Source of the DNA: a bacterium | Lineage (GTDB): Bacteria; UBA8248 | Assembly (NCBI GenBank): GCA_965242545.1 | Contig: OZ251456.1 | Coordinates: 21,146-85,145, forward strand | Direction of reading: 5' to 3' | Length of the DNA stretch: 64,000 bases | In this document: positions 7,441-48,334 of the stretch, in pieces | Layout: the number at the start of each line of letters is the position of its first letter | How positions within the stretch are numbered: position 1 is the first letter of the stretch | Program-made: the position numbers and the translations under genes | The notes under the pieces: generated by a model | The model's input: the letters and a program-made list of their open reading frames with translations, nothing else | Database searches by the model: none | Told to the model about the DNA's origin: nothing

Positions 7441-8148
7441 GATCGGGGTGGGGAGGATGACCAGCGAGGTTCCGTAGGGGCGATCTCTCCTCGGGCTTGC
7501 CCCACGGTTCGCGAACCGCCCGTTTGGGTGGGAAGGCGATCTGGGAGAGGAGATGACCGCGATCGGAGCGGCGGGAGGAGCTGACCGATCGGGGCCGGGA
7601 GGATGGCCGCGATCGGGGCGGGGAGGCGATCCGGCCGATCGTGTCTTATTCAGAAGAAATTCCCCATCTTTCGGCGTTTTTCGTTTTGAATCAATCGGTT
7701 ATGCGTTCGCAAAAGCTGCGTGAATTCGCCTGAAAACGCCTTGAATTCGTTTTGAATTTGCTCGATGGTATTTGAATTGAAAGGTTTTCGGTTCGACGGA
7801 AAAAGACGCCCTCTTGATCGCCAATCGGGCGTGTTTCGGCTCGAATGGTACCTTTTTCGCTTCTTTTCGGGATACCGCAAATGCGGGCAAATGCGCGCGC
7901 CGCCGCGTCGCCGCCGACCCACAATCGGGGCGCATGTCCGCGCCCCCTACAATCGGACGCCACCCCACCGTGGGGCGGGCCCGGGAAGGAACCGCCCCTG
8001 CGAAACCCGTCGCGCCGCCGGGCGTCCCGCGAGGACAACCACAGGGGGTTGTCCCTACGGCAATCCGCATCGTCGGCCAATTCACGACGCGCCGCGTCGT
8101 CAACAACCCGCGATCGGGGCGCGTATATGGCGCCCTCGGCGTATTCCC
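7441..8148. repeat. left copy of a ~0.7-kb inverted repeat: 25-nt tandem GATCGGGGCGGGGAGG... units, an AT-rich ~250-bp core, and palindromic modules
   Basis: The reverse complement of 7650-7900 is ~90% identical to 30990-31245. The outer 7585-7650 matches the reverse complement of 31250-31320. The inner palindromic modules 7900-8148 match 30700-30980. Confidence 0.75.
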
Positions 8149-9543
8149 CTAGAACCGCGCGAGGAGGCTCACGCTCCCGCCGACCTCCCTGTTCTCGCCG
8201 GCGGCGGAGAAGTCCACGGAACCCCGAATCTCGTATTTTCCCTCTGCCCAGGCGTGAACGCCCCCGGCCCGCAGCCGAACCCGGGACGCCTCGGCCCTCG
8301 CCTTCAGCCGCTCGCCCGAGACCCTCGCGCTCGTCCCCGCCGAGAAGTCGTGCTCGAAGCCGGCCGCCCCGAACAGACGACCCGCGCCCGTCCGCTTCTC
8401 CACGCTCACCCCCGCCGCGCCCGTGAACATCTCGCCGTCCTCGATCGACACCCGCGAACCCACCGAGTCCGTGAAGTCGTCCAGCGAGACAGAGGAATGA
8501 ACCAGCCGGACGCGCGGCGTGAACGTCAGCCCCCCGGATTCGACCCGGCGCCCCAGCTCGACGCCCGCCGCCCAGCCCGAACCCGACGCCCCCGTCTCCA
8601 GCGCGCCCCGCGCGTCGGAGTCCAGATCCGCCTCATACGCGGTCGCCTCGAGCTGGGCGTCCAGATAGAAGCCCCCGCCAAGCCCCACGGCGGCCGAGAC
8701 GCCCACGCCGCTGCCGCTCACCTCGATCTCCCCGCTCCCGTCCACCTTCGCCGAGCCTCGCCCGTGACGCGCCGAGAAGCCGAGCAGGGCGTTCGCGCCC
8801 AGGCTCACGTCCACGCCCACCCGGACGCCGTAGCGGTCGTATTCATACGTCACGCCCGTCTCGGAGGCGTCCGCCTCCCAGTCGCCGCTCGCGCCCTCCG
8901 CCCGCGCCCAGACGCCGCGCGGCGACCGCGGCGCGCTCATCCGCTCCTCATGCGAGAGCATCCCGTTCATCCTCAGCAGAACCGAGGGCAGCGCCTCGTA
9001 GAGCTCGCAGCGGCGATCCCGCGCCCGGACACAGGAAAACACCGAGAGGTCGAGCGTCGAGAGGTCGAGCGGCTCGTCCTGGTCCTCCACCTCGAAGGTG
9101 GCGCGGTCGGTGATATTCCCCTCCTCGTCCACGAGCTCGACCTTCACGGTCTCGGCGCCCTCGACGGAGCCGCCCACCCGCTCCCGGATCGCCTCGCCCA
9201 CGTCCTCCTCATCGTCCCGCACCCGCACCGTGAGATCCACCGTCTCGCCCTTGATAAGCGGTTCGTCCGGATCGTTGTGCTCGGACCGCTTCACTGTTCC
9301 CGTTTCTCCGACCGTTATTTCCGTGGGGACGCACGACTCAACGGTGCCTATCACCTGGCCGTGAATGATGATGGTCGACCTGGGCTTCTGACGCCGCTGC
9401 CCTTCCGGGCAGTCCTCCTGCGCCCGCGCCTCCCCGGCGGAAAGCGTCAGCGCCGCCAGAAGCGCGGCGAGGAGAGGGATTCCTCGTCTCGCGCCTTTTG
9501 AACCGGGTAAAGAGCGGTCGTCTCCGTACAATCGCTTTCTCAT
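8149..9543 (-). CDS. autotransporter (type Va) outer-membrane protein: signal peptide, short passenger, C-terminal beta-barrel
   Basis: The signal peptide is MRKRL...LLAALLAALTLSAGEARAQE. The C-terminal ~300 aa are homologous to the C-terminus of the giant protein at 24042..30692 (YEALPSVLL..ERMSAPRSPRG...VRLVHSSVSLDDFTD...AGVSVEKRT...). It ends in ...LLARF, an aromatic terminal residue typical of OMPs. Confidence 0.7.
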   Translation of the reverse strand: MRKRLYGDDRSLPGSKGARRGIPLLAALLAALTLSAGEARAQEDCPEGQRRQKPRSTIIIHGQVIGTVESCVPTEITVGETGTVKRSEHNDPDEPLIKGETVDLTVRVRDDEEDVGEAIRERVGGSVEGAETVKVELVDEEGNITDRATFEVEDQDEPLDLSTLDLSVFSCVRARDRRCELYEALPSVLLRMNGMLSHEERMSAPRSPRGVWARAEGASGDWEADASETGVTYEYDRYGVRVGVDVSLGANALLGFSARHGRGSAKVDGSGEIEVSGSGVGVSAAVGLGGGFYLDAQLEATAYEADLDSDARGALETGASGSGWAAGVELGRRVESGGLTFTPRVRLVHSSVSLDDFTDSVGSRVSIEDGEMFTGAAGVSVEKRTGAGRLFGAAGFEHDFSAGTSARVSGERLKARAEASRVRLRAGGVHAWAEGKYEIRGSVDFSAAGENREVGGSVSLLARF

Positions 9544-9731
9544 CTGAATCGTCCTCTCGATGAAGTGAAAGAATCCCCTGTTGCTATCCGCCGCTTCTCG
9601 AATTCAGTCCGCCGGTTGTCGTCGGAAGACGACGAGGCGGAGGCGCGCGTTCGCCGAGAAGGCGGACTTCACGCCTTCGGGAGCGAGGAAGACGCCGCCG
9701 GAGGGCGCCCGCTCCCGGAAAACGGTTTCCT

Positions 9732-9801
9732 GTTGAGCGTTGAGCGTTGAGCGTTGAGCGTTGAGCGTTGAGCGTTGAGCGTTGAGCGTTGAGCGTTGAG
9801 C
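9732..9801. repeat. heptanucleotide tandem repeat (GTTGAGC)x10
   Basis: Perfect 70-nt array ~190 nt upstream of the autotransporter start at 9543. It lies between that gene and the cas9 remnant. Confidence 0.9.
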
Positions 9802-10138
9802 GCCTTTTCCCAGCCTAACCCCTCCCGCCTCGGGGCGCAAGGGGGCGTCGGGGACGCGGGGTTTCCGAACGCGGGAGAGAGGAAGATTCTCCCGCGCGCG
9901 GGCGACGGTTCAGGCATGAAAAGACGGGCCTCCTCGATGAGGGTCGAAAGCTCGCCGGCGGAAAGCGGAACCCGTCTCCGCGGCGAGTGAAAGCGACGAT
10001 TTGGACAAGGTTACGAAAATCCGCCTCGGGCGTCAATCCGCCCCCGGAAAAGCGGGCGGGACGGGGGAGGAACCCCGCGCCGTTCGGCGAACGGAGGCGG
10101 GGGCGTTCCGACGGCGGGGCGCATGTATGCGCCCCGTT

Positions 10139-22149: not shown

Positions 22150-22620
22150 ACCACCCCGCCTTTGGTCGCCGAACGGCGCGGGACGCATGTAGAAGAACGC
22201 CGCGGAGACGCCCCCGTGGCCGTCCCCTACAATGGAATATCGCCACCCTCGCCGTAGGGGGCGCATATATGCGCCCCGATTGTAGGGTTGGCGACGATGC
22301 GGATTGCCGTAGGGACAACCCCCTGTGGTTGTCCGTTGTCAACGGCGCGCGCCGGTCTGGTTTTCACCGCCGGGACGTTGCGCCCGTAGGTGAAGCGCCA
22401 AGGGGCGCTTCCCACACATACATGCGCCCCGGTTGTGGAATTGCCGACGATGCGGCGCGGACAACCACAGGGGGTTGTCCCTACGAAGGCGGAATCACCA
22501 CCGGCCCGCAGGGGTGGTTCCTTCCCGGGCCCGCCCCACGGTTCGCGGCGGCGCGCCCGCCCGTGTTCGCCGAACGGCGGGGGCATTGCCGTTCCGTCGG
22601 CGATTCGGTATGATCGCGCG
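22150..22620. repeat. palindromic intergenic repeat cluster (modules A-E)
   Basis: Contains GGGGCGCATATATGCGCCCC, GGACAACC-N-GGTTGTCCCTACG (twice), and CACCGCCGGGA-N-CCGTAGGTGAAGCGCCAAGGGGCGCTTCCCACACATA. Confidence 0.7.
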
Positions 22621-22658: not shown

Positions 22659-23138
22659 ATGACGGACTACGAGAAGCTCAACCTTGTCATCGCCTTTCTC
22701 GCGCTGATCGCCTCCTACGGCGGTCTGGCGCTGCTCTACTACGGCATCCGCCAGATGGATCGGGGGAGCGCGCGGCGGGCGGCGGAGTCGAAGCGCCAGC
22801 ACGAGGAGACGATGACCGCGCTCGCCGAGGAGCGGGAGGAGGCCCGGAGCCGGCACGAGGAGGCGATGCGGAAGATCGCCGAGGATCAGGAGGCGTCGCG
22901 GAAGCGGCACGAGGAGGCGATGGCCGCGCTCGCCGAGGAGCGGGAAGCCTCCCGGAAGCGGCATGACGAGGTGATGGCCGAATCGGAGAAGCGGCACGAG
23001 GAGGCCATGCGCAAGCACGACGAGGCCATGCGGAAGCACGACGAGGGGGCGGAGGAATCCAAACGCCGGCACGAGGAGAGCATGGCCGCGCTCACGGAGC
23101 TCATCAAGCGGACGGGAAACCCGCAGAAGCCCTCGTAG
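22659..23138 (+). CDS. small membrane-anchored coiled-coil protein with RHEEAM heptad-like repeats
   Basis: An N-terminal TM helix (LVIAFLALIASYGGLALLYY) followed by ~7 degenerate copies of (K/R)RHEEAM(R/A). Confidence 0.45.
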   Translation: MTDYEKLNLVIAFLALIASYGGLALLYYGIRQMDRGSARRAAESKRQHEETMTALAEEREEARSRHEEAMRKIAEDQEASRKRHEEAMAALAEEREASRKRHDEVMAESEKRHEEAMRKHDEAMRKHDEGAEESKRRHEESMAALTELIKRTGNPQKPS

Positions 23139-23139
23139 G

Positions 23140-23760
23140 GACACAACCCCCCGTGGTTGTCCTTCATCATGTTCGTATCCCGCAGATACCCGAACCGCCC
23201 GCCTTTGGTCACCGAACGACGCGGGACGCATGTATGCGTCCCCTACGGCGAGGGTGGCGATATTCCTTTGCAGGTGACGCGCGGGAGCGCGTCCATACAT
23301 GCGCCCCGTCGTGAATTGGCCGCCGGCGCGGATTGCCGTAGGGACAACCCCCCCGTGGTTGCCCGTTGTCAACGATCCGGGCGGTTCCGCATCGGAAACG
23401 CCCCGCAATTCACGAACCGTGGGGCGGCCCCGGGGAGGGGTTGCCCCTGCGCAAAAACAAAACCGCCGCCCTGCCTTGTTCACCGCCGGGATATTTCACC
23501 CGTAGGTGAAGCGCCAAGGGGCGCTTCCCACACATATATGCGCCCCGCATGTGGAATTGGCGATGACGCGGCGCGGACAACCACGGGGGGTTGTCCCTAC
23601 GGAACCGACAAACCCGCATCACCCCGAACGGCGCGGCACCTGCGCAAAACAAAATCGTCGTCCGTCCGTGGTCGCCGGATGGATATTGCGCCCGTCCGCG
23701 CGGGACGCATATATGCGTCCCCTACAAAACCGTTGCCCGGCGCGGGTGTGAATTTTCATC
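23140..23760. repeat. palindromic intergenic repeat cluster
   Basis: GGGACGCATGTATGCGTCCC, GGGACAACC-N-GGTTGCCC, GGGGCGCATATATGCGCCCC and GGACGCATATATGCGTCCCCTAC, the same modules as at 22.2 kb. Confidence 0.7.
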
Positions 23761-23923
23761 TTGCGCGGGGGTTGAACTTCGCCAACTCTTTTTGTTACAA
23801 TGGCGGTCATCATCGGTTTTGACGCGGGACTCGAACGAAACGGGAATCGACCGCTTACAAAGGGGGCAGCGCACATGAGCATGTTCAGCTTGTCCGCGCC
23901 TTGGGATTTGGGGCATACTGGCG

Positions 23924-24023
23924 CCGACTCACCGACTCACCGACTCACCGACTCACCGACTCACCGACTCACCGACTCACCGACTCACCGACTCACCGAC
24001 TCACCGACTCACCGACTCACCGA
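23924..24023. repeat. octanucleotide tandem repeat (CCGACTCA)x12.5
   Basis: Perfect 100-nt array immediately 5-prime of the giant autotransporter gene's ATG at 24042. It lies within the TTG-initiated ORF 23901. Confidence 0.9.
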
Positions 24024-24041
24024 CATGAGAAGGGGCGCGCG

Positions 24042-27000
24042 ATGAGAACGCCGGACGGCGCGGGACGCAACTATGCGTCCCCTACAAAATCGTCGCCGCC
24101 CTGTTTCCGTAGGGGGCGCGGACAACCACGGGGGGTTGTCCCTACGGATATAAAACCGGCATGGGGGCGGCTGGCGGGGCTTCTCGCCGGCTTGGCGCTG
24201 GCGGGGCTGCTGCTGGCGCCGGGGGAGGCGCGGGCGCAAGCCCTTCTATGCGGGAACTCGAACAACGTCCGCTTGGACTGCCCGAATCGGGATTATCCCG
24301 ACGGCATCGTCTATGGCATCGCGGGCGACAGCAGCAATATCAGCCACGGCATCCCCCAGACGCTCAACCTCCTGGGCCACAGTTCCGGGCCGATCACGCT
24401 CACGGCCGGCGCCCGGGGGGTCGCCTTCGGCGCGCGAGCCAGCGGAGGGGCAGGCCTCACGTTGAACATCGGCGGCGCGACGGGCGGGACCGCCCACGTC
24501 GTCAGATTCGTCCAGGGGACGAACTCGGTCTCCGGCATCGACCGGAACAACGGCATCTATGTTTGGCGTACGGCCAACAACACCGGCGCGAGCACAACGC
24601 TGAACGTGAAAGCCGGTGTGACCATCGGCACGATGGCCACGCCGATGAAGCAGCACGGCATCTTCCTCCGCCCGCACGCCGACCGCCCCTCCGCTGGCCG
24701 GGGCAGCGCCGGCCTCACCCTCACCAGCGCGGCGACCATCCATGCCGCCCGGCAGGGCATTCGGATAGTCCGGCAGACCGGGGGCACCAACGACGCGACC
24801 ACCGTCACCAACACCGGCGCCATCCACTCGGGCGTCGGCAACGCCGCCGCCACCGGCAGCTACGTCGACCGGCCGCACGGCATCTACGCGCTGCATGGGG
24901 GGACGCAGAGGACCGGCTCGCTGACCGTCACCAACTCGGGCGACATCACGGTGGGGGGCGCCTACACCGGCATCCTGATGAACTACTGGGGCGCCGGCGC
25001 CCTGAGCCTCGACAACCGCGGGGACATCGCCGCGGCGACGGGGCAGACGGCGAAGCAGGGCATCCAGTTCAACTACAAGTACTGGGACAACCAGAGCGCC
25101 CAGGCCATCACGCTCACGAACTCCGGCGACATCACGGCGTCCGAGTTCGGCATCCGGCTCACGAAGCTCTCGGGCGGCGCGGTCGAGCTCACGAACAGCG
25201 GCGCCATCACGGTGACGGGCGACGCGGCGCAACACGCGGGGCACGCCATCTATCTGGCGGAGGGCGTCACCTTCGGCGAGGGCAGAACCTACGCCGCCAA
25301 CGGCGGCGCCCTCACGGTCGACAACAGCGGTGTCCTCAGCTCGAAGAACCACGCCCTCTACGTCTACCTGGCCACGGCGGACGACGACGTCGAGCTCGAG
25401 AACAGCGGCGACGTCGTCTCGGAGGAGGGGGACGGCATCCGGATCGAGCGGGTCGTCGAGGGCGACGTCGCGGTCGAGAACAGCGGGAGCGTCTCGGGGA
25501 AGGGCCACGGCATTTACGTGGGCCAGGCGGCGCGGATCGACTTCGAGCAGTCGGGGTCGGGGACGATCAGGGGCCGGACGGGGGTCTATCTCGGTGTCGC
25601 GAAGGAGAGCGCGTCGGGCGACTCGCGCAGCACGGACAGCGGCGGGGATCACATCCCCGCGATCGACGTGACCTGGTCGGGCGGGAGCGTGGCGCGGGGG
25701 CCGGCGACGACGGGCGCCCGCTTCACGGCGACCACCTGGCTGGAGACGTCCGTCGCCGACCGGGAGGCGACGGTGGTGAAGTCGGTGGAGGATTCGCTGC
25801 GCTGGGGGGCGGCGGCGGGTCTGGAGGCGCGCGTCCTGTCCTGGCGGGCGGTGATGGAGCAGGTGGCGGCGGGCGACGATCCGGGCGTGATAGCGAACGC
25901 GGCGGCGCAGACGACGCTGCTGGCGACGAGCGGGGCCGGTTCGCGCCGGGCGACCATCCTGGCGCAGGTCCGGGCGATGCTGGGGAACGATGACCTCTCG
26001 GTGGGGACGGATCTCCTCACCGCCATCGACTCGACGGCGACGAGCGTGAGCGACCTGAGCGACGCGGAGATCGCGACCTATCTGACCCAGGACGCCCCGG
26101 ACATCCGGATCATTCTGCGGAACATCCTGCGTTACGGCCTCTCGGCCGCCGAGAAGGCGGTTCTGGCGGCGGTCGTGGCGGGGGACGGCACGGCGCTCAC
26201 CACCGCGCTGGCCGTCACGACGCCGGCCGCCTTCTCCTCCGCCTACAAGACGGCGGTGACCGGGCTGCTGTCCCGCTACAACCTGGACGACGTCAGCGTC
26301 AGCATGACGGGCGGCGAGATCGCCTCGCGCGGCGACGGCATCCGGGCCTATTACGCGACGGCGAACGACAGCAACGGGAGCGTGGAGATCACCATCGGCG
26401 CGAACGCGGCCGTGGAGGGAGACGTCCACGGGATTCACGTTTCGGGCGGCGGGGTGAACGCCTCCAGCGTGAAGCAGCAGCGCGTCACCGTGAACGGGAG
26501 GGTGACGGGCGGGACGGGGGCGGGCGTTCACCTGGTGGGCGGGGGGACGGTGACGGTGGGCGCGGGCGGGCGCGTGGGCGCGACCTCGGGCACGGCCATC
26601 GAGACCTCGGACGGCGGCGATCTGACGGCGGCCATCTCCGGGCGGGTGGAGGGGGACATCCGGGCGGCGGGGACGCTGACGCTCACCTCGGCGGCGGGGA
26701 GCGTGATCACGGGGACGGTTCACGACCCCTCGGGTTCGCTGTCGGTGGCGGGGAGCATCGGGCGGATCGTCTATACGAGCGGGGGGACGGTGACGGTGGC
26801 GGCGGCGGGCCGGCTCACGGGGGTGTCGGGCGAGGCGGTTCGCAGCGACTCAGGCGATTTGAGCGTGACCATCGCCGGGCGGGCGACGGGCGACGTTGAG
26901 GCGGGGGGCAGCGGGAACCTGACCCTGAGCCTCACCGGGAGCGGGCGGCTGGACGGCGACGCCGAGGCGGGGGGGACGCTGACGCTGACGGCGGCGGCGG

Positions 27001-30000
27001 GGACGGTGATCACGGGGACGGTTCACGACCCTTCGAGCGCGTTCACGACGGTGTCGGGGAGCATCGGGCGGATCGTCTATACGAGCGGGGGGACGGTGAC
27101 GGTGGCCGCGGCGGGCCGGCTCACGGGGGCGTCGGGCGAGGCGGTTCGCAGCGACGCGGGCAACCTGAGCGTGACCATCGCCGGGCGGGCGACGGGCGAC
27201 GTTGAGGCGGGGGGCAGCGGGAACCTGACCCTGAGCCTCACCGGGAGCGGGCGGCTGGACGGCGACGCCGAGGCGGGGGGGACGCTGACGCTGACGGCGG
27301 CGGCGGGAACGGTGATCACGGGGACGGTTCACGACCCTTCGAGCGCGTTCTCCACGGTGTCGGGGAGCATCGGGCGGATTCTCTACACGAACGGCGGGAC
27401 GGTGGCGGTGGCCGCGGCGGGCGCTTTGACGGGGGTTTCGGGCGAGGCGGTTCGCAGCGACGCGGGCAACCTGAACGTGGACGTCTCGGGCCGGGCGGGG
27501 GGCGACGTCATCGCCAACGGCGGGGGCGATCTGGACCTGGACGTGCTGGGTTCGGGGCGGGTCGAGGGTGACGTCAAGACCTCGGGCGGGGGCGACCTGG
27601 ACGTCTCCCTGGCCGGCACCGGGCGGATTGACGGCGACGTGCGCGCCCAGGGCGGGGGCGACCTGACGCTCGCCTCGGCGGCGAATACCGTCATCACGGG
27701 CACGGCCTACGACCCGACGGGCGCGCTGTCGGTGGCGGGGAGCGTCGGACGGATTCTCTATACGAACGGCGGGGACGTGACGGTCGCATCGGGGGGCGCC
27801 CTGACGGGCATCGATGGCGTGGCCGTCCGCAGCGCCGCGGGGAACCTGGACGCCGACGTCGCCGGGCGCGCGGGAGGCGACGTCATCGCCAACGGCGGGG
27901 GCGATCTGGACGTGGACGTCTCGGGTACGGTCGCGGGCGACGTTCTGGCGAACGGCGGCGGCGACCTGACGGCGGACCTCACCGGGACCGGGCGGGTGGA
28001 AGGCGATATCCGGGCCTCGGGCGGGGGGACGCTGACGCTGACGGCGGCGGCGGGGACGGTCATCACGGGGACGGTTTACAGTCCCGCGAGTCCGTTCACG
28101 GTGTCGGGGAGCATCGGGCGGATTGTTTATACGAACGGCGGGACGGCGACGGTGGCCGCGGCGGGCGCCCTGACGGGGGTCTCGGGCGAGGCGGTTCGCA
28201 GCGAGGCGGGGGACTTGAGCGTGACCGTCGCCGGGCGCGCGGGAGGCGCCATCCTGGCGAACGGCGGGGGCGACCTGACGACGGACGTCTCGGGGACGGT
28301 CGAGGGCGACGTTATCGCCTCGGGCGGGGGCGACGTGGAGGTGGACGTCACGGCCGCCGGGCGGATCGAGGGAGACGTTCGCGCCGAGGGCGGCGGGATG
28401 CTGACGCTGACGGCGGCGGCGGGGAGCGTCATCACGGGGACGGTCTACGGCCGCCCCGCGGGCGCGTTCACGGTGGAGGGCAGCATTGGACGGCTGGTCT
28501 ACGCGAGCGGGGGCGAGGTGACGGTCGCCGAGGGCGGCGTCCTGACGGGGGTGGATACCGGGGACGGCATGGAGGTGATTCGGAGCGAGGCGGGGGATTT
28601 GAGCGTCACGGTGGCCGGGCGGATCGGGGGCGGCATCCGCTCCGCGGGCGGCCTGGACGTCACGATAACGAGCGCGGCGCCGGGCGACCTCCGCGCGGGC
28701 GGCGACATGACGGCGGATATATCCGGGACGGTCGAGGGCGACCTGGACGCCGGCGGCGATTTGACGGCGACGATCACCGGGGAAGTCGAGGGCGACCTCG
28801 CCGCCGGGGGCGACATGACGGCGGAGATTTCGGGAACGGTCGAGGGGAGCGTCCGCGCGGGCGGGGCCGTGACGGCGGAGCTCTCCGGGCGGATCGAGGG
28901 CGACCTGGACGCCGGCGGGGCGCTGGCGCTGACGGCGACGTCGGGGAGCGTCATCGCGGGCACGCTTCGCGGCCCCGGGGGCGCGTTCACGGTGAGGGGG
29001 AGCATCGGGCGGATCCTTTACCGGGGGGCGGGGACGGTGACCGTGCCCGAGGGCGGCGTTCTGACGGGCGTGGATACCGGGGACGGCATGGAGGTGATTC
29101 GGGGCGAGGCGGGGGACTTGAGCGTGGTGGTGGCCGGGACGGTGGGGGGCGGCATCCGCTCCGCGGGCGGCCTGGACGTCACGATAACGAGCATGGTGCC
29201 GGGCGACGTTCGCGCGGGCGGCGACGTGACGGCGGACGTCTCCGGGACGCTGACCGGCGACCTGGACGCCGGGGGCGACATGACGGCGGATATCACCGGG
29301 ACGCTGACGGGCGACGTGGTCGCCGGGGGTGATTTGACGGCGGATATTTCGGGGACGGTTGACGGGAGCGTCCGCTCCGGGGGCGACCTCACGGCGGTGA
29401 TCACCGGGATGGTGACGGGCGACGTGGAGGGACCGGGCGCGGGCGATCACACCGTGACGGTCTCGGCGGGGGCGGTGGTGACGGGAACGGTTCACCTGGC
29501 GGCCTCCACCGTGCGGGTGGACGGGACGGTGGGCGGGGTGCGCTTCCGGCGGGGCGGAACCCTCACCATCGGGCCGAACGGGCGGATACTGGCGGGCGAA
29601 GGGGTGGCGATACGCAACGACCGGGGCGCGCTGACGGTGACGATAGAGGCGGCCCCGGGCGAGCGGCCCGAGGAGAGCGTCGCCCGGGTGGAGGGGACGG
29701 TGGTGGACCCGGGCGGGAACGAGCGGGCGCGGACGCTGACCCTCCTCTCGACGGACGGGCAGACGGCCGAGCTGAGCCTGGACCTGGAGGGGCGGATCAG
29801 GAGCGGCCTGCCCCCGCGCGCGAAGGTGTATGAGGCGCTGCCCTCGGTTCTGCTGGGCATGAGCCGCCCGCTCTCCTACGGGGAGCGGCTGAGCGCGCCG
29901 CGCTCGCCCCGGGGCGCCTGGGCGCGGGTCGAGGGCGCGAGCGCCAGCTGGAAGGCGGTCTCCTCCGCCTCGGACGCGGAATACGACATGAAGCGCCACG

Positions 30001-30692
30001 GCGTCCGCGCGGGCGTGGACCTGCGCGCGGGGGCGGACTTCCTGCTCGGCTTCTCGGTTCATCACGTTCGGGGCTCGGCGAACATGGGCGCGGACGACGA
30101 GGGCGGGGAGCTCGAGGCGCGGGGCAGCGGGCTGGGGCTTCACGCGGCGTGGGCCTTCGGCGGGGGCTTCTACGCGGCGGGGCAGTTCGAGGCGACCTCC
30201 TACGAGGCGGACATGGAGTCGGACCGGCGGGGGGAGCTGGAGACGGGCGCCCGCGCCCTGGGCCTGACGGTCGGGGCGGAGCTGGGGCGCCGCGTCGCCT
30301 CCGGGGGGGTGACCATCGCCCCGCGCGTCCGGCTGGTTCACGCCTCGGTCTCGATGGACGACTTCACCGACGAGGCGGGCTCCGAGGTCTCGGTCAAGGA
30401 CGCCGCCAGCTTCACGGGCGCGGCGGGCGTGAGCGTGGAGAAGCGCACCCGCGCCGGGCGCGCGTTCGTCTCGGCGGACTTCGAGCGGGAGTTCATCGAG
30501 GAGACCCGGGTGAAGCTCGACCGCGACGCCCTGAAGGCCAAGGCGTCGGAGAGCCGGCTTCGCCTGCGCGCGGGCGGCCTCCACGCCTGGGGCGGGGGCA
30601 GATACGCCGTGCGCGGCGCCCTGGACTTCTCCGCCGCCGGCGATGAAAGCTACGAGGTCGGCGGCAGCCTCGCCTTCCGCGTGAGGTTCTAG
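24042..30692 (+). CDS. giant autotransporter adhesin (~2,216 aa) with a repetitive passenger domain and a C-terminal beta-barrel
   Basis: Signal peptide ...WGRLAGLLAGLALAGLLLAPGEARA-QA. Passenger domain of Gly/Thr/Val-rich beta-helix-like repeats, including ~101-aa modules repeated near-identically. The C-terminal 300 aa are homologous to the 8149..9543 protein and end in ...FRVRF. Start codon uncertain: ATG 24042 reads through a palindromic repeat module. Confidence 0.7.
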   Translation: MRTPDGAGRNYASPTKSSPPCFRRGRGQPRGVVPTDIKPAWGRLAGLLAGLALAGLLLAPGEARAQALLCGNSNNVRLDCPNRDYPDGIVYGIAGDSSNISHGIPQTLNLLGHSSGPITLTAGARGVAFGARASGGAGLTLNIGGATGGTAHVVRFVQGTNSVSGIDRNNGIYVWRTANNTGASTTLNVKAGVTIGTMATPMKQHGIFLRPHADRPSAGRGSAGLTLTSAATIHAARQGIRIVRQTGGTNDATTVTNTGAIHSGVGNAAATGSYVDRPHGIYALHGGTQRTGSLTVTNSGDITVGGAYTGILMNYWGAGALSLDNRGDIAAATGQTAKQGIQFNYKYWDNQSAQAITLTNSGDITASEFGIRLTKLSGGAVELTNSGAITVTGDAAQHAGHAIYLAEGVTFGEGRTYAANGGALTVDNSGVLSSKNHALYVYLATADDDVELENSGDVVSEEGDGIRIERVVEGDVAVENSGSVSGKGHGIYVGQAARIDFEQSGSGTIRGRTGVYLGVAKESASGDSRSTDSGGDHIPAIDVTWSGGSVARGPATTGARFTATTWLETSVADREATVVKSVEDSLRWGAAAGLEARVLSWRAVMEQVAAGDDPGVIANAAAQTTLLATSGAGSRRATILAQVRAMLGNDDLSVGTDLLTAIDSTATSVSDLSDAEIATYLTQDAPDIRIILRNILRYGLSAAEKAVLAAVVAGDGTALTTALAVTTPAAFSSAYKTAVTGLLSRYNLDDVSVSMTGGEIASRGDGIRAYYATANDSNGSVEITIGANAAVEGDVHGIHVSGGGVNASSVKQQRVTVNGRVTGGTGAGVHLVGGGTVTVGAGGRVGATSGTAIETSDGGDLTAAISGRVEGDIRAAGTLTLTSAAGSVITGTVHDPSGSLSVAGSIGRIVYTSGGTVTVAAAGRLTGVSGEAVRSDSGDLSVTIAGRATGDVEAGGSGNLTLSLTGSGRLDGDAEAGGTLTLTAAAGTVITGTVHDPSSAFTTVSGSIGRIVYTSGGTVTVAAAGRLTGASGEAVRSDAGNLSVTIAGRATGDVEAGGSGNLTLSLTGSGRLDGDAEAGGTLTLTAAAGTVITGTVHDPSSAFSTVSGSIGRILYTNGGTVAVAAAGALTGVSGEAVRSDAGNLNVDVSGRAGGDVIANGGGDLDLDVLGSGRVEGDVKTSGGGDLDVSLAGTGRIDGDVRAQGGGDLTLASAANTVITGTAYDPTGALSVAGSVGRILYTNGGDVTVASGGALTGIDGVAVRSAAGNLDADVAGRAGGDVIANGGGDLDVDVSGTVAGDVLANGGGDLTADLTGTGRVEGDIRASGGGTLTLTAAAGTVITGTVYSPASPFTVSGSIGRIVYTNGGTATVAAAGALTGVSGEAVRSEAGDLSVTVAGRAGGAILANGGGDLTTDVSGTVEGDVIASGGGDVEVDVTAAGRIEGDVRAEGGGMLTLTAAAGSVITGTVYGRPAGAFTVEGSIGRLVYASGGEVTVAEGGVLTGVDTGDGMEVIRSEAGDLSVTVAGRIGGGIRSAGGLDVTITSAAPGDLRAGGDMTADISGTVEGDLDAGGDLTATITGEVEGDLAAGGDMTAEISGTVEGSVRAGGAVTAELSGRIEGDLDAGGALALTATSGSVIAGTLRGPGGAFTVRGSIGRILYRGAGTVTVPEGGVLTGVDTGDGMEVIRGEAGDLSVVVAGTVGGGIRSAGGLDVTITSMVPGDVRAGGDVTADVSGTLTGDLDAGGDMTADITGTLTGDVVAGGDLTADISGTVDGSVRSGGDLTAVITGMVTGDVEGPGAGDHTVTVSAGAVVTGTVHLAASTVRVDGTVGGVRFRRGGTLTIGPNGRILAGEGVAIRNDRGALTVTIEAAPGERPEESVARVEGTVVDPGGNERARTLTLLSTDGQTAELSLDLEGRIRSGLPPRAKVYEALPSVLLGMSRPLSYGERLSAPRSPRGAWARVEGASASWKAVSSASDAEYDMKRHGVRAGVDLRAGADFLLGFSVHHVRGSANMGADDEGGELEARGSGLGLHAAWAFGGGFYAAGQFEATSYEADMESDRRGELETGARALGLTVGAELGRRVASGGVTIAPRVRLVHASVSMDDFTDEAGSEVSVKDAASFTGAAGVSVEKRTRAGRAFVSADFEREFIEETRVKLDRDALKAKASESRLRLRAGGLHAWGGGRYAVRGALDFSAAGDESYEVGGSLAFRVRF

Positions 30693-30699
30693 CCGCGGG

Positions 30700-31410
30700 A
30701 CGCGAAAACGCGAATCGACCGGGCGCGGGGAACGGCGAATCACGCCCCCGCGCCCGGTTTTTTGCGCGGCAAAACGGGACGCATATATGCGTCCCCTACG
30801 GGCCGGGGGTGGCGTCATCCAATTGTAGGGGGCGCGGACACCCGCCCCGCACCTGCGCGTCACCTACCCCCTACGCAAAACCGCCGCCCTGTTTCCGTAG
30901 GGGGCGCATATATGCGCCCCGATTGTGGGACGGCGACGACGCGGCGCGGACAACCACGGGGGGTTGTCCCTACGGAAACAAAATTCCCCGCGCGCATTTG
31001 CCCGCATTTGCCGTCGCCCGAAAAGAAGCGAAAAAGGTACCATTCGAGCTGAAACGCGCCCGATTCCCGATCAAAAAGGCGTCTTTTTCCGTCGAACCGA
31101 AAATCTTTCAATTCAAATACAATCGAGCGAATTCAAAACGAATTCAAGGCGTTTTCAGGCGAATTGACGCAGCTTTCAGGAACGCATAACCGCTTGATTC
31201 AAAACGAAAAACGCCGAAACGCGGGGAATTTTATCTGGATAAGACCCGATCGGGCGGATCGCCCTCTCGCCCCGATCCCGGCCATTCTCCCGGCCCCGAT
31301 CTGCCATTCCGCCGCGCCGGGGTCGGCTCATCCTCTCCCCGCTCCGATCGGCCCCTCCACCGGGAGTGGTTTCCCCCTCGCCCCCGAAGCCCGGATCCCG
31401 ACCATCGCTC
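30700..31410. repeat. right copy of the ~0.7-kb inverted repeat (see 7441..8148)
   Basis: 30990-31245 is ~90% identical to the reverse complement of 7650-7900. It includes palindromic modules and 25-nt GATCGGGGC... units. Confidence 0.75.
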
Positions 31411-31416
31411 CCCGGC

Positions 31417-32193
31417 TCACCTGCCTTTCCATCGCGGCTTTCTTTTCTCCAGGAAGGCGCGCAGCCCCTCCGCCTTGTCCTCGGTTTCGCAAAGCGCGCC
31501 CTGGGCGAACTTCTCGAGCGCCAGCCCCGCCTCCATGCTCCCCTCCATGCCGCAGCGCACCATGGCCTTCATGAACTGCGGCACGAAAGGCGCGTAGCCC
31601 GCCAGTTTCCGCGCCATCTCGCGGACCTCGGGCAGGAGGTCGTCGGGTTCCGCCAGCCGGGTGACGAGGCCGATTTCGAGGGCGCGCTCCGCGCCGATGA
31701 CCTCTCCCATCAGGAGCATCTCCATGGCCCAGGCGCGCCCGACGAGGCGGGGCAGGCGCTGGGTGCCGCCGCCGCCCGGGATGATGCCGAGCCGCCCCTC
31801 CGGCGTGGCGAATTTCGAGGCCGGCGTGGCGATTCGCAGGTCGCAGCCGAGCGCCACCTCCAGGCCGCCGCCCATGCAGTAGCCGTTGATCGCCGCGATC
31901 GTCGCCTTGGGCGTTCTCTCCAGGCGCTCCGCCACCCCCTGCACCAGGGGGGTGAGCGCGATTTCGAGGCTGCGGCGCTCGACTTCCTCCAGGTCGGAGC
32001 CGGAGGCGAAGGCCTTGCCGCCCGCCCCGGTGACGGCGATGGCGCGGATGGCCTCCTCCCCCGCCGCCCGGGCGATGGCGGCGTGCAGATCGTCCAGCGT
32101 GGCCAGGGAGATGGCGTTGAGCCGCTCGGGGCGGTTGATGGTGATCAGGGCGAGGGGCCCGTCCGCTTCATACAACACGTTTTCGTATGGCAT
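31417..32193 (-). CDS. enoyl-CoA hydratase/isomerase (crotonase family)
   Basis: MPYENVLYEADGPLALITINRPERLNA... and ...INGYCMGGGLEVALGCDLRIA... are crotonase motifs. Confidence 0.85.
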   Translation of the reverse strand: MPYENVLYEADGPLALITINRPERLNAISLATLDDLHAAIARAAGEEAIRAIAVTGAGGKAFASGSDLEEVERRSLEIALTPLVQGVAERLERTPKATIAAINGYCMGGGLEVALGCDLRIATPASKFATPEGRLGIIPGGGGTQRLPRLVGRAWAMEMLLMGEVIGAERALEIGLVTRLAEPDDLLPEVREMARKLAGYAPFVPQFMKAMVRCGMEGSMEAGLALEKFAQGALCETEDKAEGLRAFLEKRKPRWKGR

Positions 32194-32238
32194 GACCGTC
32201 CTTTCTCGGCGGGCGCGCGCCGCGCTTCTCTCCGGGGG

Positions 32239-33231
32239 TCAGGCGTCTCTCGCGACCCTGTTTCGCAGTATCCCGATTCCCTCGATTTCCAGCTCGATCA
32301 CGTCGCCCGGCCTTATCCATCTGTCGAGGTCCGCCCCGCAGCCCGTGGCCACCGTGCCGGAGCCGAACATCTCCCCCGGGAGGAGCTCCTCCTCCATCGA
32401 GGCGTATTCGATCATCCTCTCCCAGGAATAGTAGGCGTCGCCCGCGTTGCCCCTGCTCCATTCCTCGCCGTTGACGCGGGCGATCATCGCGGCGTCGGCG
32501 GGGTCGAACTCGTCCGGCGTGACGATGCACGGGCCGACCGCCGTGCCGAAGTCCTTGCCCTTGTGCGGCCCCAGCCAGTTCTTCATCTCGGCGATCTGGA
32601 TGTCGCGCGCGCTGAAGTCGTTGAGCGCGCTGAAGCCGAAAACGTGCGCCATCGCGTCTTCCTGGCGGATGTCCCTGCCGCGCTTTCCGATGAACATGGC
32701 GAGCTCCAGCTCGTAGTCGAGCTTTTCGGTGTAGCGCGGCCATCTGATCTCATCCTCCGGGCCGATGATGGAGAGGCGGTTTCCCTTGTAGCAGGAGGGC
32801 AGTTCATACCAGACGGGGTCGATGACCGCGTTCCGCCGCCGCGCGCCCGCGGCCTTGTGGCCTTCGTGGATCAGAAAATCGCGAAACGCCTTGGGGCGCG
32901 GCGCGGGCGCGCGCAGACGCGCCTCATCGAGGGAGAAGGCGAGCCGCTCGCCTCCCGGCCCGCGCCGGGCGGCGTCCGCCAGGATGAACTCCTGGGCCGC
33001 CCGGGCGGCCGCCAGCGAGGGCGCGCCGCCCGCCATGAGCGCGCACATGTCCTGGGGAAGCCGGAAGTCGGCGTATTCCCGAAAGCGCGGCTCCTCGCCC
33101 TCTTCCCTGAGGAGGGCGGCGTAGCCGTTCGCGAGGTCGAGGGCGATTGGCCCGTCGGTGCCCTGCGCCAGCGCGCCGACGCGCGAGACGCGGCCAAGAG
33201 GGGTGGCGACTTCAAACGTGATGAACTTCAT
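32239..33231 (-). CDS. fumarylacetoacetate hydrolase (FAH) family protein
   Basis: Start MKFITFEV at 33231 with a GAGGGAGA SD. The C-terminal ...GTAVGPCIVTPDE... and ...GDVIELEIEGIGILRNRV... are FAH-fold motifs. Confidence 0.75.
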   Translation of the reverse strand: MKFITFEVATPLGRVSRVGALAQGTDGPIALDLANGYAALLREEGEEPRFREYADFRLPQDMCALMAGGAPSLAAARAAQEFILADAARRGPGGERLAFSLDEARLRAPAPRPKAFRDFLIHEGHKAAGARRRNAVIDPVWYELPSCYKGNRLSIIGPEDEIRWPRYTEKLDYELELAMFIGKRGRDIRQEDAMAHVFGFSALNDFSARDIQIAEMKNWLGPHKGKDFGTAVGPCIVTPDEFDPADAAMIARVNGEEWSRGNAGDAYYSWERMIEYASMEEELLPGEMFGSGTVATGCGADLDRWIRPGDVIELEIEGIGILRNRVARDA

Positions 33232-33480
33232 CTCCCTCTCCCGTGAAAGAGGCCGGCGCGGGGCGCGGAAATTTCCGTTGCCTCCGAAAATAGCACGGTT
33301 CGCCTCGCGCGGGGAGGCGACGCTCGCCGAAGCCCCGCGACCGCGCGACCGGAGAGCCGAAATTCGGGAAGTTGCAAAATATCCCCCGAAGGTCTTGACT
33401 TCGGCCATGGGCGCAGGTAGGTTTAGGCGTTTTCTGGGGGTAGGGCGTCCAAGCGGCCTCCCTGGAAAACATGTGAATTC

Positions 33481-34149
33481 ATGAGCCATTCCCCAACGGT
33501 TTTCGTGGAAGCGCCTGAACCTTTCGGGGGTGGGCTTATGTCCGACGCGGGCGTGATGAGAGAGGGATCGATGGGCCGTCTTCTTCGTTTCAGGCGATTC
33601 GCGCCCGTTCTGGCGCTGGTTCTCGGGCTGCTCGCCGAGCCCGCGGCGTCCTGGGCGGCGAGCGTCCCGCAAAGCGGCTTCGGCGGGTGGCTCGCGAGCT
33701 TCAACCTCGGGAGCGGGGCGCTCGTCATCAACCCGCTCGTCATCCTCGTGCAGTGGGCCAATTTTCTGATTCTCCTGGTCGTCCTCAACAAAATTCTGAT
33801 CAAGCCCCTGATGGGCCTCATGGAATCGCGCGACGCGGAGATCGCCGGCGACCTCGAAGCCGCCGAACGGGACAGGGGCGAAGCGTCGGGCTACGTCAGC
33901 CAGTATGAGGATTCGCTGGCGGAAATTCAGCGGGAGAACACGGAAGCCCTCGCCGCTCTCCAGCAGGAGATGACGGAGGCGAGCCGAAAGAGTCTCGACG
34001 GGATTCGGGAGAGAACGAACCGCGAGATTGAGGAAACGCGCCAGTCCCTCGTGATCCAGGCGGGGCGGGCGGCTTCCCAGCTCGAGGAGAGGGCCGACCG
34101 GCTGGCGAGCGAAATTGCCAGCAAACTCGCGGGCCGCAGGGTCGAATAA
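33481..34149 (+). CDS. atpF: F0F1 ATP synthase subunit b-prime
   Basis: A TM helix (LVILVQWANFLILLVVLNKILIKPL) followed by a long charged helix. First of two b-type subunits. Start uncertain (possibly ATG ~33571). Confidence 0.65.
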   Translation: MSHSPTVFVEAPEPFGGGLMSDAGVMREGSMGRLLRFRRFAPVLALVLGLLAEPAASWAASVPQSGFGGWLASFNLGSGALVINPLVILVQWANFLILLVVLNKILIKPLMGLMESRDAEIAGDLEAAERDRGEASGYVSQYEDSLAEIQRENTEALAALQQEMTEASRKSLDGIRERTNREIEETRQSLVIQAGRAASQLEERADRLASEIASKLAGRRVE

Positions 34150-34152
34150 GGG

Positions 34153-34758
34153 ATGACGGAAACCGTGCTTTCAGCGAGAAGACGCTGGTGTCTTTCGGGC
34201 CTTCTGCTTGCGGCGGCGCTGCTTTCGCCGGAAGGCGCTCTGGCCGCGGAGGCGCATCACAAGGCGTTCAGCTTCACCGAGGAGCTCTTCAAGCTCGTCA
34301 ACACGCTCGTCGTCGTGGTCATCCTTTACAAGTTCGCGTTTCATCCCCTCAAGAATTTCCTGAAAGACAGGAGAGAGGGCGTTCGCAAGGCGCTCGAGGA
34401 GGCCAGGGCGGCGCGCGATGAAGCGGAAAAGCAGCTTGCCGAGCAGCGCGAGAAGGTGGCCGACCTGGAGACCGAGCTCGCCCGCGTTCGCGATCGGGGA
34501 GAGAAGGAGCGCGGCGCGCTGAAGGAAAGACTCGAGGAGGAGCGGGAGACCCAGGAGCGGCGCCTGCTGGATCAGACGAGGGCGACCATCGGGCTCGAAA
34601 TCTCCAAGGCGCGCGCGGAGCTGCGGAGCCAGGCGGCGAGCCTGGCGCTGGGTCTGGCGGAGGAGATGCTCAAAAACAAGCTGGACGAGACGGATCAGGA
34701 AAGATTCGTTGCGAGCTATCTCGCCGAACTCGACAACAGAAACGGAGGATCGCTGTGA
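34153..34758 (+). CDS. atpF: F0F1 ATP synthase subunit b
   Basis: ...LVNTLVVVVILYKFAFHPLKNFLKDRREGV... followed by a coiled-coil. Confidence 0.7.
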   Translation: MTETVLSARRRWCLSGLLLAAALLSPEGALAAEAHHKAFSFTEELFKLVNTLVVVVILYKFAFHPLKNFLKDRREGVRKALEEARAARDEAEKQLAEQREKVADLETELARVRDRGEKERGALKERLEEERETQERRLLDQTRATIGLEISKARAELRSQAASLALGLAEEMLKNKLDETDQERFVASYLAELDNRNGGSL

Positions 34759-35297
34759 CAGGCGGCGAGGCGGCGCGGCGCTACGCGCGGGCATTGGTGG
34801 AAATCGCCGAGAAGCGAGACGCCCTGGACGAGACCGGAGAGGCTCTGGCGGAGATCGCGGGTGAATTGCAGGGGAACCGGGAGCTGCGGCGCGTTCTGCT
34901 GAACCCGCGCTTCGCGCGAGGCGCGCGGGTGAGGATACTCGAGGATATCATGGACTCGTCGGGCGCGAGCGAACTGCTGCGGAATTTCGTGCGCGTGGCG
35001 GCCGAGAAAGATCGCGTCGGCGAGTTGTCCGCCATGGCGCGGAGCTATCAGCAGCTTGCGGACGAGAGGCGCGGCCGGGTTCGCGCCCGCGTGAGCGCGG
35101 CGCGCGACCTCGACCCCGCCGCCCTTGAGAAGCTGCGCGAGAAACTCTCCGAGATGACCGGCAGCGAGGTTCTCGTGGAAGTGGAGAGGGACGAAACATT
35201 GATTGGAGGGCTGGTCTGCCGCCTGGGCGGCGTCGTCATGGACGGAAGCATCCGCAACCAGCTTCGCAGCCTGCGGAAGACGCTGATTGCGAATTGA
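34755..35297 (+). CDS. atpH: F0F1 ATP synthase subunit delta
   Basis: OSCP/delta family. The GTG start overlaps the atpF stop (GTGA). Confidence 0.75.
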
Positions 35298-35338
35298 CGC
35301 TTTTTCGGGAGTCAGCTGAAGAATCAAGGGGGCAATTC

Positions 35339-36880
<1,542 letters not shown>

Positions 36881-36887
36881 GCGGAAA

Positions 36888-39276
<2,389 letters not shown>

Positions 39277-39279
39277 GGA

Positions 39280-39705
39280 ATGACCGAAGGAAAGATGACG
39301 CTCGACATCGTGACGCCGGAGAGCAAGCTCGTCTCCGCCGAGGTGGACGAGGTGGCCGCCCCCGGCTTTCACGGCGAGATCGGCGTGCTGCCCCGGCACA
39401 CGCCCTATCTGTGTCAGCTCGGCGTCGGCGTGCTCAGCTACCGCTCCGGCAGCGCGCGGTATTTCGTCTCGATCGTCGAGGGGTTCGCCGAGGTGGGGCC
39501 GGACAGAATAACCGTTCTGGCCGAGAGCGCCGAGCGGGCGGAAGACATTGATTCCGCGCGTGCGGAGGAATCCCGCAAGCGCGCGGAAGAGCGCATGGCG
39601 GGCCGGGGACAGGAGGAGCGCTTCGATTTCGAGCGCGCCGAGGCGTCCCTGAGACGCGCCATCGCCCGCATTTCCGTGGCGCGGGAGAGCGGCATCGACG
39701 CCTAG
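39280..39705 (+). CDS. atpC: F0F1 ATP synthase subunit epsilon
   Basis: MTLDIVTPESKLVSAEVDEV... Confidence 0.85.
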   Translation: MTEGKMTLDIVTPESKLVSAEVDEVAAPGFHGEIGVLPRHTPYLCQLGVGVLSYRSGSARYFVSIVEGFAEVGPDRITVLAESAERAEDIDSARAEESRKRAEERMAGRGQEERFDFERAEASLRRAIARISVARESGIDA

Positions 39706-39871
39706 CGAAGCGTCCGGAATGGGGGGGGCCGCCGCTGACCGGGGGATGAATGGCGGCTCCGCTTTTCGTTTCATATCCAAAGCGCGCGTCTTCGTCGAAA
39801 AGAGCGCAGGGCGCGCTCTTGGAAATTGGCCGCCTGAAGCGGACGTCTTTGGGCTTGCGGGAGGTGACGCC

Positions 39872-40318
39872 GTGAAAATCTTGTCCGTTGTCGTTTTCGC
39901 GCTCACGATCTCGTTCGCCTTGGCGTCGCCGTCCCATCCGGCGGGCGATCCGAAGGGCCCCGAAACGGCGGGGGAGCACTATTCCCGAGGGGAGGAAAAG
40001 GCGAGGCAGGGACAATGGACGGAGGCGGCGGCGCTGTTTGAAAAGGCGGCCGGAGAGGACCCGCAGGATTATCGCGCGCTCAACATGCTGGGCTATTCCT
40101 TGAGGAAGATGGGCAGGACGAAAGAGGCCCTCGCCGCCTACGACAGGGCGCTTTCCCTCAAGCCCGACTACGCGCCTGCCCTCGAATACAGGGGCGTCGC
40201 CCACGTCTTGGCTGGAAACAAGGCGGCCGCTCTGGCGGATTTTCAGAGGCTCAAGCGCCTGGGTTCTCCCCTCGCCGAGGATTTGCGCGAGAAAATCATG
40301 GCCATGCCGGCCAACTGA
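39872..40318 (+). CDS. secreted TPR-repeat protein
   Basis: GTG start with a GGGAGGTG SD. Signal peptide VKILSVVVFALTISFALA, followed by TPR motifs (...ALNMLGYSLRKMGRTKEALAAYDRALSLKPDYAPAL...). Confidence 0.55.
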   Translation: MKILSVVVFALTISFALASPSHPAGDPKGPETAGEHYSRGEEKARQGQWTEAAALFEKAAGEDPQDYRALNMLGYSLRKMGRTKEALAAYDRALSLKPDYAPALEYRGVAHVLAGNKAAALADFQRLKRLGSPLAEDLREKIMAMPAN

Positions 40319-40493
40319 ACTGATATCCGAACCGGAAAGCCGCCTTGCGGACTCTCTCCCCGGGGCGGTTTTGCGGGTTTGAGCATGAGCAGCCAAGCCG
40401 CTCCGCCGCGATTCAGGACGGAGGCTGGAAACGTCCCCGCTTCCCCGCATCGGCTTCCGCGGCATGACGGGCGACGGGAGGCGCCCTTTTCCG

Positions 40494-41684: not shown

Positions 41685-41710
41685 GTCGGCGTCTCCCTGG
41701 TTTTCGGGGG

Positions 41711-42718: not shown

Positions 42719-42816
42719 GCCCGAACCTCAAGAAAGGCGCTTTGCGCGAAGGTGTAAAAAAGCCGCGGGGACGCGCCTTGAGCGCCCCCGCGGCCTGATG
42801 AAGCGAAAACGCCCGC

Positions 42817-44346: not shown

Positions 44347-44581
44347 GGGGGTTCCTCCTTTAGGGAAAGATAGGCTCCGAACTGCTCTGGCGACACTGAA
44401 AATCCGAGTCTTGCCAATCGCAAAAGCCCCGATCGATATTGCGGTTTTTCCGCTGTGGATGTCCTACTCTATCACGGATGCGAATCGGGCGTCAAAGCAT
44501 AAAGCGCGGTTTTTTTGCGTGGGTCCCGTTTTCCTTGTGAGCGCGCGCGGGTTGCGTGTATGGTCTCCATGTCTCTGAATA

Positions 44582-48330: not shown

Positions 48331-48334
48331 CGCT

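Follow-up and report, generated by a model that had tools for sequence, protein, structure and literature searches.

A perfect octanucleotide array upstream of a giant autotransporter gene is a probable contingency locus in a family that carries repeat tracts at the same place

What is the role, if any, of a perfect octanucleotide repeat that ends shortly before the start codon of a giant autotransporter gene? The repeat lies within a window of 64 kb (the whole stretch of DNA that was analysed, 64,000 nucleotides). A sequence-only reading had described it as a perfect octanucleotide array in front of this gene, and the raw sequence and Tandem Repeats Finder (TRF) both agree, except that the array runs one base further than had been given, to 24024 instead of 24023, so that 17 nt follow before ATG 24042.

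23924-24024, plus strand: octamer array (CCGACTCA)x12.6 (raw sequence and Tandem Repeats Finder)

TRF reports a period of 8, 100% matches, no indels, and a score of 202. A perfect array of 101 nt cannot arise by chance, and perfect identity across 12.6 units implies either ongoing slippage or a recent expansion. Only two long perfect arrays are present in the 64-kb window, this octamer and a heptamer (TRF score 142), and each is located 5' of one of the two genes of the window in which an autotransporter beta-barrel has been identified. On the plus strand the octamer array contains no stop codon in any of the three frames, and on the complementary strand there is a TGA in every unit. Because 8 and 3 have no common factor, all three plus-strand frames of the array encode one cyclic peptide. 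Translation agrees with the earlier observation that the array is open in the frame of TTG 23901, where it reads as LTDSPTHR repeats. Each unit also contains GANTC, the target of CcrM methylation in Alphaproteobacteria, so that the 101 nt comprise 12 such sites. The idea that the array represents a CcrM methylation cluster was dropped, as GANTC is not depleted in the window (211 sites observed vs 197 expected), and it is also weakened by the presence of the octamer in many unrelated contigs with GC contents between 30 and 73%.

The gene behind the array and the surroundings of its start are organised as follows.

24042-30692, plus strand: giant autotransporter ORF, 2216 aa (translation)
24049-24097 and 24115-24148, plus strand: two REP-like palindromic elements in the predicted N-terminal extension (repeat families D2 and D5)
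24161-24167, plus strand: out-of-frame ATG with a run of five G (24163-24167) (sequence)
24171-24236, plus strand: hydrophobic core and cleavage region of the signal peptide, LAGLLAGLALAGLLLAPGEARA, with QA after the predicted cleavage (translation)
29916-30599, plus strand: autotransporter beta-barrel domain (PF03797, residues 93-320 of the segment starting at 29640)

When scanned alone, the C-terminal 350 residues match PF03797 with E=1.9e-26, and the whole protein matches TIGR01414 with E=2.6e-28. The passenger is highly repetitive and contains repeats of 306 and 369 nt. With a signal peptide including an AxA motif, a passenger, and a PF03797 barrel the protein has the composition of a classical (type Va) autotransporter, the C-terminal barrel of which has 12 strands, and the APGEARA motif is kept in all homologues. 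ATG 24042 is the sole canonical in-frame start 5' of the signal-peptide core. We take it as the best start for the gene, because it is preceded by the Shine-Dalgarno (SD) sequence AAGGGG, because the assembly looks accurate, and because REP-like extensions are also found in homologues. There, a different REP-like unit of about 31 aa is placed between the start and the hydrophobic core, and in P0006 it is present in tandem copies. In the window, the D5 copy within the N-terminal extension is 100% identical to 23570-23603. The second candidate, ATG 24161, is one base out of frame, and one G fewer would result in a canonical 25-aa signal peptide (MGRLAGLLAGLALAGLLLAPGEARA). This ATG and the five G could be a relic of a former start or form a further, smaller slippery site. 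A sequencing error at 24163-24167 is an unlikely explanation: in the comparison of the window with five contigs of a related strain (97.4-98.5% identity over 18 kb) every indel is intergenic. Given that there are no coding indels, the assembly appears to be accurate, and the run of five G is probably genuine.

The DNA around the gene has some further peculiarities. Two families of REP-like palindromes, GGGACGCATATATGCGTCCC and CCGTAGGG...GGACAACCACGGGGGGTTGTCC...CCCTACGG, are spread across intergenic DNA, and REP-like palindromes are found at 22209-22485, 23134-23737, 24049-24148, 30772-30977, 8033-8095, and 4434-4537. Just 5' of the leader, an ORF of 159 aa (22659-23138) has a third-position GC of 0.90 and thus a strong coding signal. 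Its tandem repeats of 54 and 108 nt encode HEEAMAALAEEREA-like units, and it has no Pfam match.

Whether the array could influence the autotransporter depends on what is transcribed and translated across it. The leader contains the following elements.

23772-23801, plus strand: sigma-70-like promoter, TTGAAC, 18-nt spacer, TACAAT, with TG before the -10 element (promoter scan, predicted)
23859-23866, plus strand: Shine-Dalgarno-like AAAGGGGG, 8 nt 5' of ATG 23875 (sequence)
23875-24045, plus strand: upstream ORF of 56 codons, composed of MSMFSLSAPWDLGHTGA, (DSPTHRLT)n, and DMRRGAR (translation)
24026-24028, plus strand: third-frame TGA directly 3' of the array (simulation)
24030-24035, plus strand: Shine-Dalgarno-like AAGGGG, 6 nt 5' of ATG 24042 (sequence)

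The promoter-like site is the only one in the region 23100-24300, where shuffled sequences let expect 0.2, and the predicted transcription start is at about 23808. Because the site ends 122 nt 5' of the array and is also located 5' of ATG 23875, both would be transcribed. The upstream ORF starting at ATG 23875 crosses the entire array, and its stop codon (TGA 24043-24045) overlaps the autotransporter start (ATG 24042-24044) in the form of ATGA. A further ATG is found at 24025 between the array and the second SD. In this window of 67% GC the third-position GC is flat over 23140-24140 and rises only from about 24150, and the approximately 1 kb between the gene ending at 23138 and the signal peptide is therefore not typical of coding DNA. 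The upstream peptide of the window does not resemble the MAGSTDR-type peptides that are conserved among the paralogues, and no Rfam family exceeded its threshold when 23000-24400 was scanned. In the predicted fold of 23808-24170 (minimum-energy and centroid) the array is essentially unpaired, with z=-1.0 compared to shuffles, and a hairpin of the HMW type, in which the repeats are paired with a G-rich arm, was not found in it. The array is also not placed between the -35 and -10 elements of a promoter.

The number of units was varied in silico and the end of the upstream ORF was recorded for every variant, which resulted in three states.

12.6, 9.6 or 15.6 units: the stop of the upstream ORF overlaps the autotransporter start (ATGA) (simulation)
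13.6 or 10.6 units: the upstream ORF stops at TGA 24026 (simulation)
11.6 or 14.6 units: the upstream ORF is fused in frame to the autotransporter (simulation)

ATG 24042 remains intact, with its own SD and in frame, in every simulated unit state, and in two of the three states the upstream ORF ends at ATG 24042 or at most 16 nt away from it. The earlier proposal of a switching upstream frame is consistent with an SD-equipped ATG at 23875 whose frame crosses the array. The proposed start has to be revised, as it is not TTG 23901, and the frame is a different one.

Homologous loci carry repeat tracts in a comparable position. A protein search with the N-terminal 753 aa identified 30 relatives, the best with 79% identity, and the loci of the two best relatives carry C18 and C24 tracts about 32 nt 5' of an SD and an ATG. 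Scanning the family with one genome per species revealed 35 loci in eight MAG genome records, which together with two ENA loci makes 37, and related genomes typically contain 4-7 autotransporter copies. A poly-C/G tract of 9-29 nt is present 80-320 nt upstream of the mature N-terminus in 33 of these 37 loci, and in the approximately 280 kb that the 37 loci comprise there are only a handful of tracts of at least 8 nt elsewhere. Locus L033 has a 9-mer array, (GCAGCACCG)x11, in place of the poly-C/G tract. The layout of the window is shared by 28 loci, in which a strong SD (GGAGG) and an upstream ATG (GGAGGTTCCGAGGATG) are followed by the tract and then by the main start ATGAAGG. The main start is in frame with the mature protein in all 28. 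The upstream ORFs end in different ways.

7 of 28 loci: upstream ORF fused to the main ORF
9 of 28 loci: stop of the upstream ORF overlaps the main start (ATGA)
7 of 28 loci: upstream ORF in the third frame, continuing past the start out of frame
5 of 28 loci: upstream ORF in the third frame, with its stop 13-16 nt before the start

The frames are thus split into about one third each (7, 9, and 12), which is expected if the tract length drifts. An even split is also the pattern that assembly noise would give, and the homopolymer lengths were taken from MAG assemblies and may be imprecise. Most of the paralogous ORFs are intact for more than 1300 codons in any frame state, and C10, C12, C16, and C22 tracts are found in different copies with identical flanks. 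In L030, the tract has decayed to C6, and this locus, whose ORF is intact, shows the ATGA overlap.

Promoter-like sites were found upstream of the mature N-terminus in eight loci, with 0.01 expected per zone. In the seven loci that combine such a site with a leader-type tract, the site is located 84-190 nt before the tract. It is clearly 5' of the conserved SD-equipped ATG in six of these seven, and in L004 the site coincides in part with the outermost of several upstream ATGs. Some paralogues clearly use other mechanisms, and the family also has other tract positions. In L029 (2783-2816) a C12 tract is part of the spacer of TTGACC-16-TACAAT, in L033 (2712-2841) the 9-mer array of 11 units, which is incapable of shifting a frame, begins about 25 nt after a perfect TTGACA, and L010 and L013 have poly-G directly 5' of a TTGACG motif resembling a -35 element. 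Homology between the window and its closest relatives does not extend 5' of the end of the signal peptide (CTGCTGCTGGCGCCGGGGGAGG), and the 5' modules therefore look exchangeable. The core of the sequence-only reading, that a repeat prone to slippage acts as a switch at the 5' end of an autotransporter gene, is considerably strengthened by tracts in 33 of 37 loci, 28 of which have the same layout and one of which has a 9-mer instead.

Based on these data the octamer array is probably a contingency locus, either phase-variable or level-variable. It consists of 12.6 uninterrupted perfect units, and tracts are regarded as hypermutable from at least three to five units in the case of tetra- to octanucleotides and from at least nine in the case of homopolymers (as in PMC7383803). 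The unit of 8 nt is not a multiple of three and the tract is part of the leader. The product has a signal peptide and a PF03797/TIGR01414 barrel and belongs to a multi-copy family. According to the main reading, to which we assign a probability of about 0.55, the leader of the giant autotransporter gene is transcribed and probably also translated, and the octamer within it serves as a contingency tract that is prone to slippage. Transcription would proceed from the promoter at 23772-23801, and ribosomes would load at the SD-equipped ATG 23875 and read through the stop-free array. Each gain or loss of an 8-nt unit would rotate the upstream frame among the three outcomes. At 12.6 units, the stop at the ATGA overlap would make termination-reinitiation at ATG 24042 possible. 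With one unit more, the upstream ORF would end at TGA 24026 just before the SD of the gene, and with one unit fewer, a fusion would add about 55 residues before Met 24042, with the core of the signal peptide beginning only at about residue 100. These frame states would alter the amount of exportable autotransporter, and a clonal population would become mixed for this surface protein. Slippage at the locus of the window, translation from ATG 23875, and an effect on expression are what we infer from the arrangement of the DNA. It is a tentative guess that the ATGA-overlap state is the expressing one, for which the weak hint is that the window and L030, with its C6 tract and intact ORF, are both in this state. 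The effect on expression could well be small and not of the ON/OFF type, because ATG 24042 with its SD is left untouched whatever the number of units, and because two of the three states end nearby. It is tempting to regard the whole family as being equipped with a three-state translational switch. A short upstream ORF with a strong ribosome-binding site would hold the tract (mostly poly-C/G, the octamer in the window), and the length of the tract would pick coupling, fusion, or interference for dozens of giant autotransporters. We consider this generalisation possible, and rather doubtful at present.

The second long array of the window belongs to a smaller relative of the gene.

9732-9802, minus strand: heptamer array, GCTCAAC on the gene strand (GTTGAGC on the forward strand), x10.1, 100% matches (TRF)

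It is located 189-259 nt upstream of ATG 9543 of a small autotransporter gene (8149-9543, minus strand), whose product matches PF03797 with E=5e-29. The beta-domains of the small and the giant autotransporter share 74% DNA identity, which identifies them as paralogues. Stops in all three frames separate the heptamer from ATG 9543, and the heptamer therefore cannot act by frame shifting. If functional, it would have to act at the level of transcription or of the leader. An upstream ORF of 82 codons starting at ATG 9917 crosses the heptamer and ends at 9671, and no sigma-70-like promoter was found in 9500-10100. It had been suggested that both paralogues carry a repeat switch. Both arrays are indeed real and placed 5' of barrel genes, but they do not represent one type of switch, as the heptamer is 189 nt off and has stops in all frames. 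Just 3' of both autotransporter genes there are copies of an element of about 350 nt, at 7543-7899 and 30989-31339, which are 87% identical and have the same relative orientation at both genes. A further copy is found in scaffold L149 of the related strain (3057-3481).

The alternatives differ in whether the array has a role at all and, if so, whether translation matters for it. It could be a transcriptional or 5'-UTR volume control, in which its length alters transcript level, stability, or the geometry of the leader as in the HMW adhesin repeats, and in which there is no translation through the array and the upstream ATG is irrelevant. The HMW heptamer acts via the transcribed 5'-UTR (PMC12721329). 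Such a control is suggested by the companion heptamer and the 9-mer of L033, which cannot work by frame, and by the tract of L029 in a promoter spacer. In addition, a weaker pair, TTGTCC-18-CATACT, which is below the threshold of the scan, ends at 23919 and would place the transcription start where the array begins. However, with an array that is unpaired in the predicted leader fold (z=-1.0), a HMW-like hairpin that could be cleaved by RNase III is unsupported, and it would be left unexplained why 28 paralogues conserve an SD and an upstream ATG whose frame leads into the tract. We therefore regard this alternative as unlikely. The gene might also be off or decaying, with an array that has no control role. 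In this case the ancestral start would be ATG 24161, knocked out of frame by an extra G, and GC-rich REP sequence would have left the frame open back to 24042 only by accident. The third-position GC signal, which appears only from about 24150, would fit such a decay, as would the two REP-like elements that make up 24049-24148 and are also present in non-coding DNA, and deletion of one G would restore a signal peptide of 25 aa, the length of the MKALGVAALAAAALLLAPGEARA type of L004 and L005. Nevertheless, of the two starts only ATG 24042 is preceded by an SD (AAGGGG, suitably spaced), and many paralogues have REP-like extensions of 40-130 aa between start and hydrophobic core. The frame of 2216 codons is intact, the assembly has no coding indels compared to the related contigs, which makes a sequencing error unlikely, and decay would not explain why the array is found where the family keeps its tracts. 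In sum, we think that a decaying gene is distinctly unlikely.

That the array is just a neutral microsatellite of intergenic origin without a regulatory role was assessed by scanning metagenomes for CCGACTCA arrays of at least four units. Such arrays are present in 111 contigs (L038-L148) from different environments with GC contents of 30-73% and unrelated flanks, and they have no preferred orientation with respect to the ORFs downstream, with 15 of 87 on one strand vs 21 of 84 on the other within 60 nt, which speaks for a neutral repeat. However, both long perfect arrays in 64 kb are placed 5' of the two autotransporter genes of the window, the position corresponds to that of the tracts in 33 of 37 paralogues, and the perfection of the 12.6 units implies ongoing slippage or recent expansion. 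A neutral origin is therefore very unlikely. In favour of the main reading, octamer arrays elsewhere differ in copy number between samples although their flanks are identical, for example 13.1 units in L050 vs 10.1 units in L126 and L133, and also L046, L065, and L077. Close variants of the octamer (CACCGATT, CACCCACT, and CACTGACT) were observed in the contigs as well. Finally, the sequence-only reading had placed the start of the gene at TTG 23901, so that the array would encode a real N-terminal LTDSPTHR repeat. From 23901 the gene can indeed be reached without a stop, but TTG 23901 has no SD, there is no codon-position GC signal across 23900-24140 that would indicate coding, and such an N-terminus is absent from all homologues. 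This start can hardly be upheld, and an LTDSPTHR N-terminus is barely conceivable. We thus prefer the contingency tract in a transcribed and probably translated leader.

A direct comparison of repeat lengths at this locus would need a second copy, and none was found by exact-protein look-ups or by the metagenome scan for the octamer. The look-ups with the autotransporter, the small autotransporter, the 159-aa ORF, the enoyl-CoA hydratase, and both versions of the upstream ORF gave no match, and none of the 111 octamer contigs has the flanks of the window. The ATP synthase beta of the window is identical to proteins on five metagenome scaffolds of a related strain, which carry the label PANK22-1, and the related-strain scaffolds share 97.4-98.5% identity with the window over 30989-49258. 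The synteny of L149 with the window stops at 30989, and it has Mg-chelatase-like and luciferase-like genes instead of the autotransporter. Because the autotransporter is absent in L149, the locus appears to vary between strains. An intergenic poly-G at 39721, after the ATP synthase operon, comprises eight G in the window and five to nine G in four related contigs, and is largely deleted in the fifth (L153), so that it represents another variable homopolymer of this species. From its label alone we take PANK22-1 to stand, probably, for Pankey et al. 2022, a study of sponge microbes. The carriers are uncultured high-GC Alphaproteobacteria that probably live as symbionts of marine sponges.

Of the known systems the HMW adhesins of Haemophilus influenzae are most similar in the type of repeat. 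The genes for HMW1A and HMW2A are preceded by 7-bp ATCTTTC repeats in non-typeable strains (PMC3309571, PMC12721329) and hmw1A and hmw2A of biogroup aegyptius by 12-15 copies of the 8-bp unit GCATCATC (PMC3309571). The HMW leader forms a long hairpin that is cut by RNase III, and more repeats lead to less expression (PMC12721329). The window shares with them a perfect array of 10-15 units of 7-8 bp, a transcribed leader (predicted for the window), and a very large secreted surface protein. Both unit sizes, octamer and heptamer, are present in the window on two paralogous genes. However, HMW proteins are exported by two-partner secretion and the protein of the window is an autotransporter, and instead of a hairpin, which is not predicted in the window, there is an SD-equipped upstream ATG that reads through the array. 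In H. influenzae lic1, CAAT repeats are combined with alternative upstream ATGs, and in the opa genes of Neisseria CTCTT repeats are part of the region coding for the signal peptide. As in lic1 and opa, the unit in the window is not a multiple of three and is placed between upstream starts and the body of the ORF, which gives three states. In lic1 and opa, however, the repeat is inside the sole protein-making frame, whereas the window and the 28 paralogues keep a complete in-frame start with an SD downstream of it. In addition, the stop of the upstream ORF can overlap the downstream start as ATGA in the window and the paralogues. Phase-variable autotransporters are NalP and MspA of N. meningitidis, with poly-C/G tracts, and Lav of H. 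influenzae, with GCAA repeats, and in these the tracts are inside the gene (PMC3723659, PMC9022572). They have in common with the window a hypermutable tract near the 5' end of an autotransporter gene and a multi-copy repertoire of surface proteins. They differ in being found in human host-restricted pathogens and in having a tetramer or homopolymer within the ORF, whereas the window has an octamer in the leader and derives from an uncultured high-GC alphaproteobacterium. Homopolymers in promoter spacers act as switches in Bordetella fim and in Neisseria porA and opc. The paralogue L029, with C12 in the spacer, is of this classical type within the same gene family, and the array of the window is different in being located about 120 nt downstream of the predicted -10 element.

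To our knowledge, nearly all cases in which slippery repeats switch surface proteins at random come from host-restricted pathogens and commensals. In uncultured high-GC Alphaproteobacteria, a whole family of giant autotransporters bears this signature. For annotation this means that start-codon calls are unreliable in this family, as proteins in the databases begin at different ATGs depending on the length of the tract. If the family-wide switch is true, contingency loci would be extended to symbionts of invertebrates, and the known mechanisms would be joined by one that is based on coupling and does not disrupt the start of the gene itself. If the tracts switch, the surface of these bacteria would be continually varied, which suggests pressure from host recognition, phage, or grazers.
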